Part shown: in pieces, positions 12,085 to 57,703 of the stretch | Layout: each line of letters begins with the position of its first letter | Position numbering within the stretch: the first letter of the stretch is position 1 | Program-made: the position numbers and the translations under genes | The notes under the pieces: model-generated | Database searches by the model: none | What the model saw: only the letters and a program-made list of their open reading frames with translations | Told to the model about the DNA's origin: nothing | DNA from: an uncultured virus (IMG/VR IMGVR_UViG_2687453727_000003) | Taxonomy: Duplodnaviria; Heunggongvirae; Uroviricota; Caudoviricetes | Strand: one strand, 5' to 3' | Length of the DNA stretch: 59,556 nt | Virus record (IMG/VR): IMGVR_UViG_2687453727_000003

Positions 12085-13530
12085 CTAATAAATCAAGAGA
12101 TTATCACCATCCCATACTAATTTATCGAAAATTATGTTTATCAAATTTTGTTTATCCTCTAAATTTATTTTATTAAAATGTTTTACAAATTCATTTTTAG
12201 CTAGTTCTTTGTTTTTAAGCATTTCATCCTTTTTGCTTTTGTTATTTAGAACTATTTGATATTTGGTGTATTGCACATTTAGTTCTTCGATTTCGAGTGA
12301 GAGCTGTTCTGCTTTGTCTAACATAGATTTTGCAACAGCAGTTGAAGCAAGAGCAGACTTTTCCAAAAAACCATCATACATCTTTTTCTTTTTCTTAAGT
12401 TGTTTTTCTATATTTTCAGCAATATTAAATTCAATATTTTCATCATTTTTATTTAAGATTTTTTCAAGATTTCCGTTTTTTAAAGTAGAAAAAATTTTAT
12501 CTTCTATTTCATCAACTCTTATTCCTGAAAAACAATTTTTCTTGCATCTAAAATACATAGGCCTAGTTCCGTCTTTTCTTATGCTTCCATAGTTTATGCT
12601 CATTATTTTATTACATTGTTTACATATGATTTTATGTGCTAGCCAACTTTTAGTAGATATTCTAGGTGGTACATGTTCCAATGCCCTTAGCCTTTCTCTA
12701 ACTTTTATCCAAAGAGTAGAGTTTATTATTCCTTTATTTTGTGTTATTACCGCCAAATTAACCATTTTATCTTTTATAAACTTGTTGTATTTATAAGTCA
12801 TATAGCCATTACCATTAGGTTCTCCAATTACTTTATATCCAATAGTGGACAGGTATTTGTTGGAAATTTCATCTGATATTAAATAAATAGGATTTCTCAA
12901 AACAGTTCCTAAATTTCTAGGTGTTATTCCAGTTTCCTTAGAAATCGTCCACATAGAGTTACCAATAGAAAATTGGTTAAAAATATATAGGATTTCTTCT
13001 TTTTTCTCGATTTCCAAATACTTACCTCCAATTCCTTCAGAAGCAACACAACCATAAGGAGGAGTTCCTCCGCTCCAGCGACCTTGTTTAGCTAAACTAT
13101 ACATACCATCAATAGCACGTCTTTTAATATTTTCTCTTTCCATTTCAGCTAAAGAAGCTAATAACGTCATCATCATTTTTCCAGCAGGAGTTCTGGGATC
13201 ATAATTATCCTGAACACAAACCAAATCGACTCCAATTTTTTTTAACTCCTCAAATGTATTAAGGAAATCTAGAGTATTTCTAGCCATCCTATCAAGCTTA
13301 TAACAAGCAACAACATCAAATTCATTATTATGAGCATTAGCTATCATTTGTTTAAATGCCGGTCTGTTTATGCTTCCGCCGCTAAACCCATCATCAGTAT
13401 ATACAACAAACTTGCAGTTTTCTTTATTGAAATAATTTTTTATTATTTCAAGTTGCGCATCTATTGAAATACTATTTTCATCCCCTTTTACAGACTTTCT
13501 TAAATATGCTGCGATTTTCATAAAATTCAC
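12085..13530 (-). CDS. Large serine integrase
   Basis: AAYLRKS catalytic Ser, DDGFSG, RP, LDRMARN, recombinase domain, CxxC...YFRC zinc ribbon, coiled coil; stop 20 bp from the junction. Confidence 0.95.
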   Translation of the reverse strand: MNFMKIAAYLRKSVKGDENSISIDAQLEIIKNYFNKENCKFVVYTDDGFSGGSINRPAFKQMIANAHNNEFDVVACYKLDRMARNTLDFLNTFEELKKIGVDLVCVQDNYDPRTPAGKMMMTLLASLAEMERENIKRRAIDGMYSLAKQGRWSGGTPPYGCVASEGIGGKYLEIEKKEEILYIFNQFSIGNSMWTISKETGITPRNLGTVLRNPIYLISDEISNKYLSTIGYKVIGEPNGNGYMTYKYNKFIKDKMVNLAVITQNKGIINSTLWIKVRERLRALEHVPPRISTKSWLAHKIICKQCNKIMSINYGSIRKDGTRPMYFRCKKNCFSGIRVDEIEDKIFSTLKNGNLEKILNKNDENIEFNIAENIEKQLKKKKKMYDGFLEKSALASTAVAKSMLDKAEQLSLEIEELNVQYTKYQIVLNNKSKKDEMLKNKELAKNEFVKHFNKINLEDKQNLINIIFDKLVWDGDNLLIY

Positions 13531-16064: not shown

Positions 16065-16466
16065 ATGAGTGAAGCATTAGAAAAAAAGGCCAAAGAAAAG
16101 ATACTAGAACAGATGGACGAGCTTGGCGGAGAAATAACTACAGATGACGTTGTAGAGCTATTAAGACCACACTATATATTTAATATCCGTAAGCTTAGGG
16201 AACAAGCGTTAAGAAGGACAGCCAATAACTTAATGGCAACATACCGTGATAATAAAGGTGTTAGAACTTGTTTTAGCTGTAAGGATGATAGCGGAAATTC
16301 AAAATATTTTAATATCGAAACTACAACTGATTTAAAAGCATTAAAAAACATTGAAATCCAGTTAAATAAAAAATATAAAGGTCTTAATATTTCTAAGAAA
16401 AAAGTTCAAAGAAGAAGAGACGAGCTTTCAGGACAAGTATCATTTAAAGAAGTTGAAAATTCATAG
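16065..16466 (+). CDS. Hypothetical phage protein
   Basis: ORF with AGGAGG RBS, coupled to the ParB-like gene. Confidence 0.75.
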   Translation: MSEALEKKAKEKILEQMDELGGEITTDDVVELLRPHYIFNIRKLREQALRRTANNLMATYRDNKGVRTCFSCKDDSGNSKYFNIETTTDLKALKNIEIQLNKKYKGLNISKKKVQRRRDELSGQVSFKEVENS

Positions 16467-16485
16467 ATTGAGGAGGAATTATAAG

Positions 16486-16926
16486 ATGCAAAAATACAGA
16501 TTACACGTTGATGAGACAATAAACAGATTAAACTTCATTGATATTGAAACAGAGCTAAATGAAAAAGAAGTTGATGCATTACTTACTAAAATTGAAAAAG
16601 AGGATATTACAAGTGCATTAGATTTAAAGCGAAGATTAGAGACACAAGGTGTGCAAGTAAAATCAATAAGAGTAGATAATGGACCTTATTACAGAAGAGC
16701 TGAAACATTGGAAATTGAGGAGCTAGAAGATGTCAAAAGGAAAGGAATTATGGTTAAGTTCAAAGCTTGTGATTTAAGCAAATCAATAATTGAACAAGCT
16801 ATCGATGAACTAAGGGAAAGGATGCATATTAGTATTTCAGTAAATGGGCCACAGTCTGACACAACTATTAAAATAAGTCAGCAACTGGATGAATTGATTG
16901 TTGTAGAAATGAGGTCTAGGATATGA
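16486..16926 (+). CDS. Phage protein with C-terminal Spo0E-like domain
   Basis: IDELRERMH...TIKISQQLDELIV (SQELD-like); GAGGAGG RBS; internal RBS plus ATG at 16750. Confidence 0.7.
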   Translation: MQKYRLHVDETINRLNFIDIETELNEKEVDALLTKIEKEDITSALDLKRRLETQGVQVKSIRVDNGPYYRRAETLEIEELEDVKRKGIMVKFKACDLSKSIIEQAIDELRERMHISISVNGPQSDTTIKISQQLDELIVVEMRSRI

Positions 16927-22684: not shown

Positions 22685-22925
22685 AATCGAATTAGAAGAA
22701 AAAGTAGTTTACAGACATACTTTAACAGTTGAAGCTGACTCAGATGTTGAAGTAGAGTATGCGTTAGATGTTTTGGAAAGAGACGGTATGCATCCAGATG
22801 ATATTGAGGGATATTTAAGCGATAACAATGTGAAAATACTTGAATTTGATAAGGACGAAAGTGGAGAAGTTGAGTTTGAAGGTACAGATCTAGAAGAAAT
22901 TAATAAAAATGAGGAAAAGGAATAA
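22674..22925 (+). CDS. Acidic hypothetical protein
   Basis: ORF, start refined to MKFKI. Confidence 0.7.
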   Translation: MKFKIELEEKVVYRHTLTVEADSDVEVEYALDVLERDGMHPDDIEGYLSDNNVKILEFDKDESGEVEFEGTDLEEINKNEEKE

Positions 22926-23100
22926 GGTTATGAAAAAGTTATTTGTAGAATGCAATGATGGGAGTAAAACAACTTATACTATAAAAAACAACGTGGACCA
23001 TATGCAATATGTAAATAGACATATAAATTACAGTTATGTGAAGTCTATTATATTGCAACAATATCCTAAGAAAGATAATGAACCAATAATATATAAGTAA
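22909..23100 (+). CDS. Hypothetical protein
   Basis: Short ORF within the operon. Confidence 0.55.
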   Translation: MRKRNKVMKKLFVECNDGSKTTYTIKNNVDHMQYVNRHINYSYVKSIILQQYPKKDNEPIIYK

Positions 23101-23125
23101 TGTTCAATCTGTAGAAAATGAGTAC

Positions 23126-23741
23126 AAAAAATGCCCCAATAAAGGGGCGTATATGTATGTGATAATTAATATATGTGGGGTATTTATATTATACGTTAAT
23201 ATATCTTAAATAATACGTAATTAAAATATCATATTCCCACATTAAATGGATTGAAAATGGAGTACTGATCTGATTATGAAGACATCCTTAGCTTATGAGT
23301 ATTTTATGAAATTATTCATGATAAGAATAATAAAAGCTCCTTAAATTTAAGGAGCTCAAAAGTGAATGGACAAAAGTATAAAGATCTACAAAAAGAGAGT
23401 AACTATAAGATAAAAAATAATAATCAAGAGGTTTCCTTTCATTATATGAAGGATAAGTACAAATAATTCTAACAACTATAATTATTTATATAAAAAGACT
23501 CCAATTAAGGAGTCAAAAATGGATTTCTATAAATAGTAATATTAATGGATTCTATAAACAATAACATAACTAATGTCAATTATATTATGTACAATTTTAA
23601 AATAAGTATTCAAATAATTTAATTCACAATGCTAAAATTAAACGCAAAATATGCCCTAATTAAAGGGCACATAATGGATTCTATAAATAATAATATAATC
23701 AACAACTAATTATATTATGTACAATTTTAAAACAAGTATTC
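23126..23741 (-). ncRNA. Array of 4-5 antisense promoter-short transcript-terminator cassettes
   Basis: GAATA-N17-CATAATA at 23611-23583 and 23741-23713, GTATT-N18-TATAATA at 23216-23187, GAATT-N16-CATATAAT at 23469-23441; each has a GC hairpin plus T-run 60-110 nt downstream. Confidence 0.6.
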
Positions 23742-23789
23742 AGATGATTTTATTAAGATTACAAAAAACTAAAGAAAGGATTTGATAAT

Positions 23790-24797
23790 ATGAGCAACCT
23801 AAATGAAGAAGCCAGTATAAGATTGTTAGGAAAATTAACTTTGTTATTACCAGTTTTAGAACAAAATTTGAGTTTGCAATTAGAGGTTAAAAAGACAATT
23901 GATGAAACTTTATATGATTATGAAGTTTCATCGAAATGTACTGATCTAGTGGCAAGCGATATAGAAGAAAAATCAGCTATATATTTAGCTTGTAAAAAGT
24001 TAGAAGGTTTAAGCCAAAAGACATTAGATAATTATAGATTATTTCTAAATAAATTAGAGCGATTTTTTACAAAACCATGTTCTACTATATCTACTATGGA
24101 TTTGAGAATGTTCTTGGCCTTTATGGGAAAAGAAAAACAAGCTACCACAGTTAACGGATATATAACAATGCTTAAAGGCTTTTTCGGATGGTTGCAAGCA
24201 GAAGAATATATAATTAAAAATCCTGCATTTAAATTGAAACAAACTAAAGTACCACGTGTGATATTACAACCTTATCAACCAGAAAATTTGGAGAGGTTAA
24301 GAGAAGCGTGTATAACTGAAAGAGAAAAAGCTCTATTTGAACTTTTAGACAGTACTGCGTGCAGAATATCGGAACTAGATAATATCAAATTAAAAGATAT
24401 AAATTGGCAGGAGAGAAGTATAAAAGTATTTGGAAAAGGAAGTAAGGAGAGAATAGTTTTCTTTTCTACAAGAGCTAAGTTACACATGCAGGGCTATTTA
24501 AAATCAAGAGAAGGAGAATCAGAATACTTATTTATATCAGAGAGAGGTTCACATAATCATATAAAAGTAAGAGCATTACAATTAATAATAGCAAAGATAA
24601 AGGATAGAGCTGGAGTAGGTGAAAGGGTACATTGCCATAAATTTAGACGTACCCAAGCAACTAGGTTATTAAATTCAGGAATGAGAATTGAAGGTGTGCA
24701 GGGCATTCTTGGACATACTACCCCAAGTACAACTCAAATATATGCGCAACTATCTCAAGAAAACCTTAAAAATGAATATAGAAGATTGGTTGTGTAA
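23790..24797 (+). CDS. Tyrosine recombinase (XerC/D-like)
   Basis: STACRISE, GKGSKER, HKFRRT, LGH...TTQIY. Confidence 0.93.
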   Translation: MSNLNEEASIRLLGKLTLLLPVLEQNLSLQLEVKKTIDETLYDYEVSSKCTDLVASDIEEKSAIYLACKKLEGLSQKTLDNYRLFLNKLERFFTKPCSTISTMDLRMFLAFMGKEKQATTVNGYITMLKGFFGWLQAEEYIIKNPAFKLKQTKVPRVILQPYQPENLERLREACITEREKALFELLDSTACRISELDNIKLKDINWQERSIKVFGKGSKERIVFFSTRAKLHMQGYLKSREGESEYLFISERGSHNHIKVRALQLIIAKIKDRAGVGERVHCHKFRRTQATRLLNSGMRIEGVQGILGHTTPSTTQIYAQLSQENLKNEYRRLVV

Positions 24798-55636: not shown

Positions 55637-55854
55637 TATAGTTTTGTTCAACTAAAGAAGTAGTAGCTAGTAGAGATCAAGCTACCACTCTGTTTTATGT
55701 CAGTACTTTAATGTTAAGAACAGAATTAGGAAATATACTATTATATAAATAATATATTATAAATTAGAGAGTGTGTGATAAAAAATAGAAAAGATAGCGA
55801 ATGAATTCATATAAATATCTTTTTACATTTTTTGGGAAAGGATTATAATATAAT

Positions 55855-55945
55855 TAGAAGAGTTAATAGGATTAGTTGGGTGTTCATTTAAACATTTCTG
55901 AATAAGGGAAGTAGAGAGAAATAATTATTCCCATTTCCCTTATTC
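55855..55945 (+). ncRNA. Candidate structured small RNA, copy 2
   Basis: TTTACA-N16-TATAAT; GGGTGTT-CATTTA-AACATTT (compensatory change relative to copy 1); 3' hairpin. Confidence 0.55.
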
Positions 55946-56382
55946 TCGGATATGCAAATATAAAAGCTAGAATATTTACATACAAATTAATATAAGATAC
56001 CATAGAAATTATTAATATAAATTATGTTTTTAATTTTAAAAGCAGTAGCTAGAAGCAATCTAACTACTGCTTATTTTCTTAACACGGAGAAATATACGAC
56101 GATATAAATTCTTATATCACTTTAATATATTATGGCACTGGGAAAATGCTACTAGAATATTCAAATATATTAGTGCATGAAAAAATAAAAACAGTAATTA
56201 GGGTGAAGCTAATTACTGTTTTTTGAAATTGATATTATACTAGTATTTTAAGAATAATAACTTTTCAGGAAATATTACTATAATAACAATATACTATAAG
56301 TTAAAGAAATCGTTACAACTGTAGGAGTGTAAATTAAATAAAAATAGTTCATATTTGCAATTAAAGAGTGTTATAATATTTA

Positions 56383-56466
56383 TGAGACAATTAATAAAAA
56401 AATGTTGGGTACTCATTTAAGCATTTTAGAGTAAAAGGAATAGAGAGAAATCTTTATTCTTTTTAT
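56383..56466 (+). ncRNA. Candidate structured small RNA, copy 3
   Basis: TGtTATAAT; GGGTACT-CATTTA-AGCATTT; GAAA-loop hairpin plus T-run. Confidence 0.5.
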
Positions 56467-56951
56467 GTTAACGGATATATAATAACAGCAGTCAGGAGGT
56501 TTCTAACTGCTGCTTCTTTATAAAAACGAAAGGTAATATAATTTTTTTATAAATGCATATAAAAATTAACACGACATGGAGAAAATGCCGCTTATATTAA
56601 TTAATATATTGTAGAGTAGAAAGAAATGTTACAGAAAAAAATTTATAGTTTTGTAAATGGCTATAATTTTCAATAGATATAGGGATCATATAAAAAATAC
56701 AATCCCTTTAAGTATATATATATATATGAACCAATACCCAATCACTATTATTATATTCGGTATTTGAGAAAAGAAGAACAAAAGGCAGTAAATTTTCAAT
56801 TAATTCACTGTCTCTTTATAATTTGCCAAACCATGAAAAAGTAATCAATTATAGTGTTAGTAAATTTCTACTATTTATACTATGGATTATTTGAGTTTCA
56901 TATAATATAATATAATATTCCACAACAGCATTAAGGTGGTGATTTTATTTT

Positions 56952-57113
56952 ATGAAAGATGTAACTATAGATACAATCAAAGATACAATCAAAGATACAA
57001 TAAGAGATCTTCCAGAAGAGGAGCAAGAAACGATATTACATTTAGCAGAAATATTTGAGGGTGAAGAAGATACCATTAATGAATATATTAAGAATGAATT
57101 GCTTGATGTATAG
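56952..57113 (+). CDS. Small acidic protein, 53 aa (paralogue of 4045-4194)
   Basis: MKDVTIDTIKDTIKDTIRDLPEEEQETILHLAEIFEGEEDTINEYIKNELLDV; one extra in-frame 12-bp GATACAATCAAA unit. Confidence 0.75.
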   Translation: MKDVTIDTIKDTIKDTIRDLPEEEQETILHLAEIFEGEEDTINEYIKNELLDV

Positions 57114-57332
57114 GAGAATAATTGATATAATATGTTCGATTAGATTGCACAAATACTAGTTTTAAAGGTAGATTAGGTAAAAATACTTAGTCTACCTTTT
57201 ATTTTTTGCGCAAAATAGAGATAGCAGAAGGTCAGGCGAATGACAGTCGAGCTATCTCTATTTGATTAATGTAGCGGTACGTTTTAATTATTAGCAGTAT
57301 TTGAATAAATTATGCATAAGATTATAAAGAAT

Positions 57333-57406
57333 AAAAAGGCAGCAGCCGAAGCCACCACCAGTCCATTTTGCAATTTTATTATACCTATAAAAAATACTTA
57401 ATTCAA
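57333..57406 (-). ncRNA. Candidate ultra-short sigmaA RNA, copy 2
   Basis: TTGAAT-N17-TATAAT; GCAAAATGGACT, UUCG-loop hairpin and T5. Confidence 0.5.
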
Positions 57407-57703
57407 GAGGAAACAAATATTAAAAAGAGATAGCTGGGAGACTGAGAAATTGCTATCTCTTTCTGTGCGTATAAATTTTACATTTGAGCAGTTATATTAT
57501 CTGCAGAACATAAAAAAATATACATCTAATATAACTTTTTTTCATACTACAGTTTATGTAGAAAGTGTGCAGTAAGAAATAAAAATAATGTTCTTTGAAA
57601 ATTGAATAATACGACTCTTACAAAATATGCTATAATTAATACAGAATAGTAAATCATGACGGAGTAAGCGTTATTTAACTAAAGTAAGTATGGAGGAACA
57701 TTT

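Follow-up and report, generated by a model that had tools for sequence, protein, structure and literature searches.

A prophage-borne cluster of short promoter-to-terminator units with chromosomal homologues in Clostridium, predicted to encode spore-stage small RNAs

The DNA analyzed here, a 59,556-nucleotide stretch of an uncultured virus record (hereafter the window), contains a cluster of five short minus-strand promoter-to-terminator units of three to four types. We read it as a host-derived cassette whose units would give rise to small RNAs (sRNAs) at the spore stage, the type-A RNA pairing with the start codon of a Spo0E-like gene (possibly also that of sleC) and blocking translation. 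We put the chance that this reading is right at close to even, if slightly below.

The virus record from which the window comes is 121,556 bp long and includes two prophages; the window makes up its second half. The prophage in the window runs from a serine recombinase gene (12085-13530) into replication, head, contractile-tail and lysis genes, and one of its genes (16453-16926, plus strand) codes for a protein whose C-terminal domain is Spo0E-like. Sequence resemblance identifies the host as a Clostridium, presumably of the C. beijerinckii group. The cluster lies in an ORF-free gap of 689 bp (23101-23789; 22.9% GC), which the initial annotation had put at about 690 bp; it is bounded by an ORF at 22909-23100 and an integrase-like ORF at 23790-24797, and contains no ORF of at least 35 aa. 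The latter, a tyrosine-recombinase-like gene on the plus strand with 87% relatives in a C. puniceum genome, was not counted as part of the cluster because most of its relatives have no units upstream. Contigs of two RNA runs join position 23115 to 23763 by 891 other letters, and the slot at 23116-23762 therefore accepts other cargo. The whole window gave no match to Rfam 15 at the gathering score. Within the gap there was also no repeat-spacer pattern of a CRISPR array or RNA anti-CRISPR, nor, within or adjoining it, a conserved small ORF as in type I or III toxin-antitoxin RNAs.

All five units lie on the minus strand. Unit 1 (type A, 23643-23741) has GAATA at 23741-23737 and CATAATA at 23719-23713, a terminator stem at 23672-23649 and a predicted RNA of ~60 nt; its seed (23674-23687) is an exact 14-nt complement of a Spo0E-like gene, counted from the AUG. 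Unit 2 (23490-23611), a type-A unit with a doubled motif, has its promoter at 23611-23583, a terminator at 23514-23497 and a predicted RNA of ~88 nt. Its first seed (23545-23561) is an exact 17-nt complement of the same Spo0E-like gene, again from the AUG, and its second (23518-23541) is predicted to pair with the sleC start region in a 5 + 11 bp duplex. Unit 3 (type B, 23327-23469) has the SigE-like, promoter-like boxes GAATT...CATATAAT, with CATATAAT at 23448-23441, a terminator at 23357-23334 and a pyrimidine-rich predicted RNA of ~110 nt. Unit 4 (23126-23317) starts from GAATA-N17-TAAGCTA (23317-23289) and has a predicted RNA of ~160 nt with two UCCAUU motifs; its terminator (23148-23133) also serves unit 5 (23126-23216), which starts from the internal promoter GTATT-N18-TATAATA (23216-23187) and has a predicted RNA of ~55 nt lacking the motif. 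Units 1 and 2 are the only close duplicates, unit 5 shows a weak relationship, and units 3 and 4 represent other types. The UCCAUU motif is nevertheless common to the otherwise unlike units 1-4.

All the features that the initial annotation had described in the gap were recovered at the stated places, among them the two near-identical GAATA-N17-CATAATA promoters 130 bp apart (at 23741 and 23611), the GTATT-N18-TATAATA promoter at 23216, the four minus-strand hairpin terminators, and AATGGA at exactly six positions (23245, 23256, 23365, 23518, 23544, 23673). The six copies are all on the plus strand, with none on the minus strand, and 300 dinucleotide shuffles reached a maximum of 4; part of this excess comes from the duplication of units 1 and 2. 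Minus-strand terminators numbered 4, compared with 0.6 +/- 0.8 in shuffles, and generic sigma-70 sites were not enriched in the gap (10 vs. 14.1). As in trans-acting sRNAs, the units have their own promoter and an intrinsic terminator, and reading frames are not conserved among homologues. The seed is conserved and accessible: apart from the terminator the RNAs are predicted to be mostly unstructured, with seeds unpaired or weakly paired, and some decayed chromosomal or prophage copies lack TCCAT.

The sigmaG promoter consensus of B. subtilis is GNATA-N17/18-CATNNTA, and the boxes of units 1, 2, 4 and 5 fit this B. subtilis-derived pattern, with ATA-N17-CATA also fitting sigmaE; their homologues keep G-[ATC]-AT-[AT]-N17/18-YA[TA]NNTA. 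The C. difficile sigmaG consensus is similar to that of B. subtilis (PMC3789822). A sporulation sigma factor, most likely sigmaG, may read these four units. Two promoters had initially been called SigE-like, and both boxes, CATATAAT and CATAAGCT, are present; however, the CATAAGCT of unit 4 is better taken as sigmaG-type, because homologues turn it into CGCAAACT or CACAAACT yet keep GAATA-N17-[CT]AA[AG]CTA. The unit 3 promoter, whose CATATAAT is kept in homologues, appears SigE-like.

Genes for small acid-soluble proteins (SASPs) are sigmaG-dependent in C. difficile (PMC3789822). None of the ten SASP genes in a related Clostridium genome (G008) has GAATA-N17-CATAATA near its start; most have a GGTTAA-extended box, and the sigmaG pattern matched one, 149 nt upstream. 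The exact GAATA-N17-CATAATA box, searched for in 2.4 Mb of G008, precedes members of a family of secreted 105-aa proteins in six of seven genes. Both results make the sigmaG assignment less certain. Two RNA runs searched as raw reads yielded 38 and 55 reads at the array, in both orientations and without common ends; none reached 99% identity, and they were therefore assigned to chromosomal paralogues. Contigs of two other RNA runs contain the array without differences, which speaks for its presence only and not for transcription.

Homologues of the cluster are found in the chromosomes of related hosts. BLAST with units 1-2 gave matches in 8 of 129 scored genomes of the genus, and a sequence-only model at E 0.01 gave them in 18 of 130, strong ones (E < 1e-14) being confined to G008, G009, G026 and G121. 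In three of these (G008, G026, G121), a DUF6143 gene is followed by type A, unit 3 and units 4-5, arranged as in the window and in a non-phage context; G009 has units 3-5 followed by the same downstream genes as in G008, where the neighbors are AraC regulators, transporters and enzymes. A second copy in G008, 90% identical to units 3-5 of the window, is separated by ~22 kb from a small group of phage-like genes. The window and the core chromosomal copies share 79-81% identity and, for the most part, the promoter boxes, motif and stems. The core copies are 89-96% alike among themselves, against 91-94% for a neighboring intergenic stretch, i.e., without excess conservation, and several copies have decayed through loss of promoter, motif or terminator. 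Solo chromosomal relatives exist for unit 3 (L344-L347) and unit 5 (L340, L341). Among 188 host terminators, just three have TCCAT within the 16 nt upstream, and two of the three are these units. Because the core copies are syntenic, transfer probably went from host to phage. The initial proposal of a phage-amplified family is not supported by these results, given that the cluster is chromosomal in related hosts and that duplication extends closely only to units 1 and 2.

Two further kinds of chromosomal relative were seen. A shorter type-A-like unit, with ATCCAC for ATCCAT, precedes a gene for a sugar-binding protein in four genomes (L328, L329, L331, L333). Unit-5-like or type-A-like matches also occur 2-3.5 kb from a second Spo0E-like paralogue (G009:C1:286318-288796; G026:C8:5463-9049; G051:C4:10379-13973).

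Relatives of the downstream recombinase gene were found at 37 loci, 34 of them with upstream DNA. Of these 34, two match the window exactly, L003 has unit 1 alone, in the same place, and two have a similar promoter before unrelated sequence; the remaining loci have no such unit upstream. An earlier scan of viral contigs required ATCCATT and returned 104 distinct matches, 12 with a terminator. Because that requirement selects for the motif, the scan was repeated with a promoter and a terminator loop but without requiring TCCAT. It gave 29 matches, 21 of which are homologous loci in 16 contigs (15 distinct sequences). TCCAT precedes the stem in all 21 (15/15 distinct sequences) and is absent from the eight unrelated loci, and in 15 of 15 the homologues' spacer consists of an AU tract of constant length together with TCCAT. 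This retention supports the view, put forward in the initial annotation, that these are short promoter-terminator genes with a conserved motif. Covariation of the terminator is blurred by two stem registers.

The viral type-A relatives are single units among reverse-oriented genes for ~105-aa secreted proteins with the same promoter box; a double unit resembling unit 2 occurs in L211 and L234. The only viral contigs with the unit 3 pattern were two that are identical to this phage. Scanning viral contigs for a 15-nt motif returned 120 stretches, taken as mostly chance, and an annotated phage collection gave one match, also chance. A metagenome scan produced 108 distinct matches, three of which passed a hairpin filter, none with the motif, and two others had the motif; this filter missed one true class and so yields no usable count.

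Several other elements accompany these loci. The secreted ~105-aa proteins form a large family present both as prophage morons and on the chromosome (L187, L211, L234, L235, G008; e.g., L396:10895-11209), nearly all behind the GAATA-N17-CATAATA box; they match no named Pfam or NCBIfam family, and their Atlas clusters are unnamed. Reverse-oriented spore-coat-like genes, with no Pfam or NCBIfam match, adjoin units in other prophages (L011:1781-2128, L304, L326, L327). A conserved inverted repeat of the ATACCGCA...TGCGGTAT type lies 3' of many cassettes (L307, L317, L319, L322, L324, L011) and could mark a route of cassette insertion. Elsewhere in the window, ~2 kb 3' of the endolysin gene (55640-57700) has few ORFs and several hairpins and probably spans the right end of the prophage. 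It includes a short minus-strand element (57330-57400) with a sigma-A-like promoter, a GGTGG...GCTGCC hairpin and a U-run; hairpins of a similar type immediately precede integrase-like genes at five loci (L022, L023, L024, L032, L037) and once in G008, and the element is probably a separate leader or antisense element.

The search for targets covered 2218 start regions in 2.4 of the 5.88 Mb of one relative, G008, rather than the window's own host chromosome. The best candidate for type A is a 54-aa gene at G008:3704218, which matches PF09388 with 32 bits (cut-off 23), has the signature aspartate (S-Q-Q-L-D) and is classified here as Spo0E-like, a predicted phosphatase. Spo0E dephosphorylates Spo0A~P (PMC7206700). 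The gene's promoter box is of the SASP type, and G008, G009, G026 and G121 do not differ over its first 26 nt. Its start is the exact complement of 17 nt of unit 2 and 14 nt of unit 1, from the A of the AUG, and in 1.6 Mb of G008 this single 17-mer is the longest exact complement to unit 2. Shuffled sequences reached 17 nt in any start region in 27 of 2000 cases (p ~0.01, unanchored) and anywhere in the sequence in 254 of 1000. If the unit 2 match is anchored on motif and start codon the figure is ~2.5e-4, from a test picked after the match was seen, and the 14-nt match of unit 1 was equaled by 378 of 2000 shuffles.

By duplex energy, the Spo0E-like gene ranked first of 2218 start regions for the unit 1 seed and the first unit 2 seed; for the unit 1 seed it had also come first of 1495. 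Over 18 distinct type-A seeds it came third by mean, with ranks from 1 to 1106 of 2218; for most other prophage type-A variants it ranks 15-1106, and for G008's own chromosomal type-A copy only 483 of 2218. A close orthologue was found only in G008, G009, G026 and G121 among 122 scored genomes, the same four that have strong type-A matches, a co-occurrence confounded by kinship. The second Spo0E-like paralogue, absent from G008, ranks 9-23 for three of the four seed-orthologue pairs of unit 1 and the first unit 2 seed, and 174 for the fourth.

The second candidate, sleC, encodes a homologue of the spore cortex-lytic enzyme (PDB 9h68_A, E 7e-121), and its start ranks first of 2218 for the second motif of unit 2. 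Over the 18 distinct type-A seeds it has the best mean score, with ranks of 1-97 and a place in the top 10 for 10 of them, an agreement that is not independent because the seeds are homologues. Variable seed bases fall in the loop of the sleC duplex, in contrast to the Spo0E-like duplex, where they lie inside. No more than 5 kb of G008 (G008:3702414-3707176) contains sleC together with the Spo0E-like gene and a SASP gene, and units 3-5 occur as a copy ~30 kb away.

Taken alone, energy rank is not significant: for 60 control 24-mers from upstream of other terminators the median best z was -5.2, with 11 of 60 at or below -6, and the seeds (-3.9 to -6.5) score no better. What sets the seeds apart is their fixed AUGGA register, the exact 17-mer and the fact that both top targets are spore genes. 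The suggestion in the initial annotation that the RNAs pair with AUGGA start regions has thus gained two named candidates but no support from energy ranks. Neither the Spo0E-like gene nor sleC ranks high for the seeds of units 3 and 4, and the 2218 start regions of G008 held no convincing target for these two units and no clear one for unit 5. The rest of the phage record contains no exact complement of at least 11 nt to the first bases of either seed. A degenerate complement pattern gave weak coding matches (spmB-like and others), none at a start codon of interest, and ranking duplexes of the whole RNAs brought up mainly long pairings with many gaps; both were set aside.

Under the proposed mechanism, the phage would have taken up the cassette from a host chromosome, and late in sporulation the units would yield short U-rich RNAs. 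Type-A RNA would then pair over the AUG of the Spo0E-like mRNA, and perhaps also that of sleC, reducing translation. The prophage copy, a better match than G008's own, would strengthen this repression, and altered Spo0A~P levels, spore maturation or germination might benefit the lysogen.

An unlikely but serious alternative is that the units are hitch-hiking debris, the promoters and terminators of the mobile 105-aa secreted-protein morons after gene loss, with any RNA incidental and the complementarity due to chance. The same promoter box stands before the secreted-protein genes that flank many units, decayed copies exist, conservation shows no excess and the slot is swappable. However, a constant-length AU tract with TCCAT was kept in 15 of 15 homologues with no ribosome-binding site or coding remnant seen, cluster order is kept in four genomes and across paralogues ~80% alike, and the 17-nt match begins exactly at an AUG. 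Silencing in cis, in which antisense transcription from the prophage units, or interference by them, would hold down the early lytic operon in sporulating cells, seems distinctly unlikely to us. The lambda OOP RNA offers an analogue, and the units do face against the early operon here and in five other prophages (L003, L187, L211, L234, L235). Protein-coding morons at these places are oriented alike, though, chromosomal copies lie outside any phage operon, and each RNA stops at its own terminator before any gene; nor would a conserved seed be necessary in cis.

More doubtful still is that the RNAs act through a protein bound at UCCAUU or the AU tract, or that the promoters are sigma-factor decoys. 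A motif common to otherwise unlike units, RNAs largely unstructured outside the terminator and the lack of a clear target for units 3-5 would all suit such a role. Against it, there is no candidate protein, the changes to UCUAUU and UUCAUU retain G-U pairing to AUGGA, and a few extra promoters would presumably make a weak decoy. We consider it very improbable that type A is simply an inverted piece of a Spo0E-like gene, so that the match would record origin and not present regulation. Past the first 17 nt, the opposite strand of unit 1 aligned with the second Spo0E-like paralogue better than any of 300 shuffles did. This was one of four such tests, however, and the remaining three, two of which used the matching gene itself, gave chance-level results; the alignment has many gaps and a high AT content, and such an origin is compatible with regulation. 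Hardly credible, finally, is that the units encode or protect tiny peptides, or that they sponge the RNA at 57333-57372, as the initial annotation had suggested. Short frames exist on both strands, but their lengths vary between homologues; the 57.3-kb element contains AAUGGA, but its complementarity to the units is ~7 nt by inspection, and it resembles the hairpin before integrase-like genes elsewhere.

A stronger form of the start-codon pairing proposal, which we regard as unlikely, is that clostridial prophages capture and retune host spore-stage sRNAs. The two type-A copies would have been refined until, as antisense RNAs, they matched a Spo0A brake almost perfectly, and a second seed would be directed to SleC, so that entry into and exit from dormancy would be steered by RNA alone. 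If the start-codon pairing holds, the cluster would represent an undescribed spore-stage sRNA family in solvent-producing clostridia with targets in the Spo0A switch and germination, and a case of a temperate phage influencing dormancy through host regulatory RNAs, not proteins. Control by Spo0A couples sporulation to solvent production in solvent-producing clostridia, and the finding would therefore be relevant to strain engineering. Our literature search, mostly outside subscription papers, turned up neither an account of these RNAs nor any report of an sRNA that targets Spo0E or sleC; supplementary sRNA tables of solventogenic clostridia may list them. The main text of PMC8102284 mentions Spo0E once and sRNA never, and 'Spo0E' is absent from the main text of the SpoX/SpoY paper (PMC10267692).

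Phage morons are self-contained promoter-gene-terminator cassettes set against the operon direction, and temperate phages are known to carry host-derived sporulation functions. These familiar examples are proteins, whereas the cargo in the window is predicted to be RNA. The statement in the initial annotation that there is no described equivalent was too strong, as NsiR1 of Nostoc PCC 7120 is a comparable tandem array of ~60-nt sRNAs, each with a differentiation-specific promoter, which act on translation starts of differentiation genes and whose divergent copies have different targets (PMC9045159). The clusters are alike in their tandem units with own promoters, but here only units 1 and 2 are close copies. 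NsiR1 belongs to cyanobacterial heterocysts and is described as 12 near-identical, exclusively chromosomal copies (PMC9045159); the window's cluster has three to four unit types with sporulation-type boxes and is prophage-borne. No sequence relation to NsiR1 was found (Rfam negative), and nothing in our results points to membership in the NsiR1, SpoY or Bvs196 families. SpoX and SpoY of Clostridioides difficile are likewise clostridial sRNAs that act in trans by pairing at the start of the mRNA for a sporulation regulator, but they are single genes and target spo0A itself (PMC10267692). SR1 of Bacillus subtilis also modulates sporulation, in its case by blocking translation of kinA, which belongs to the Spo0A pathway, but its target is a kinase and it is a chromosomal, dual-function RNA (PMC8501984). 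The Bacillus forespore sRNAs CsfG and Bvs196 differ in being single-copy, longer (294 nt for Bvs196) and of conserved structure, and the account in PMC9147052 does not describe them as prophage-borne (CsfG as cited there and in PMC9045159). By analogy, the cluster is built like NsiR1 and would work like SpoY or Bvs196.
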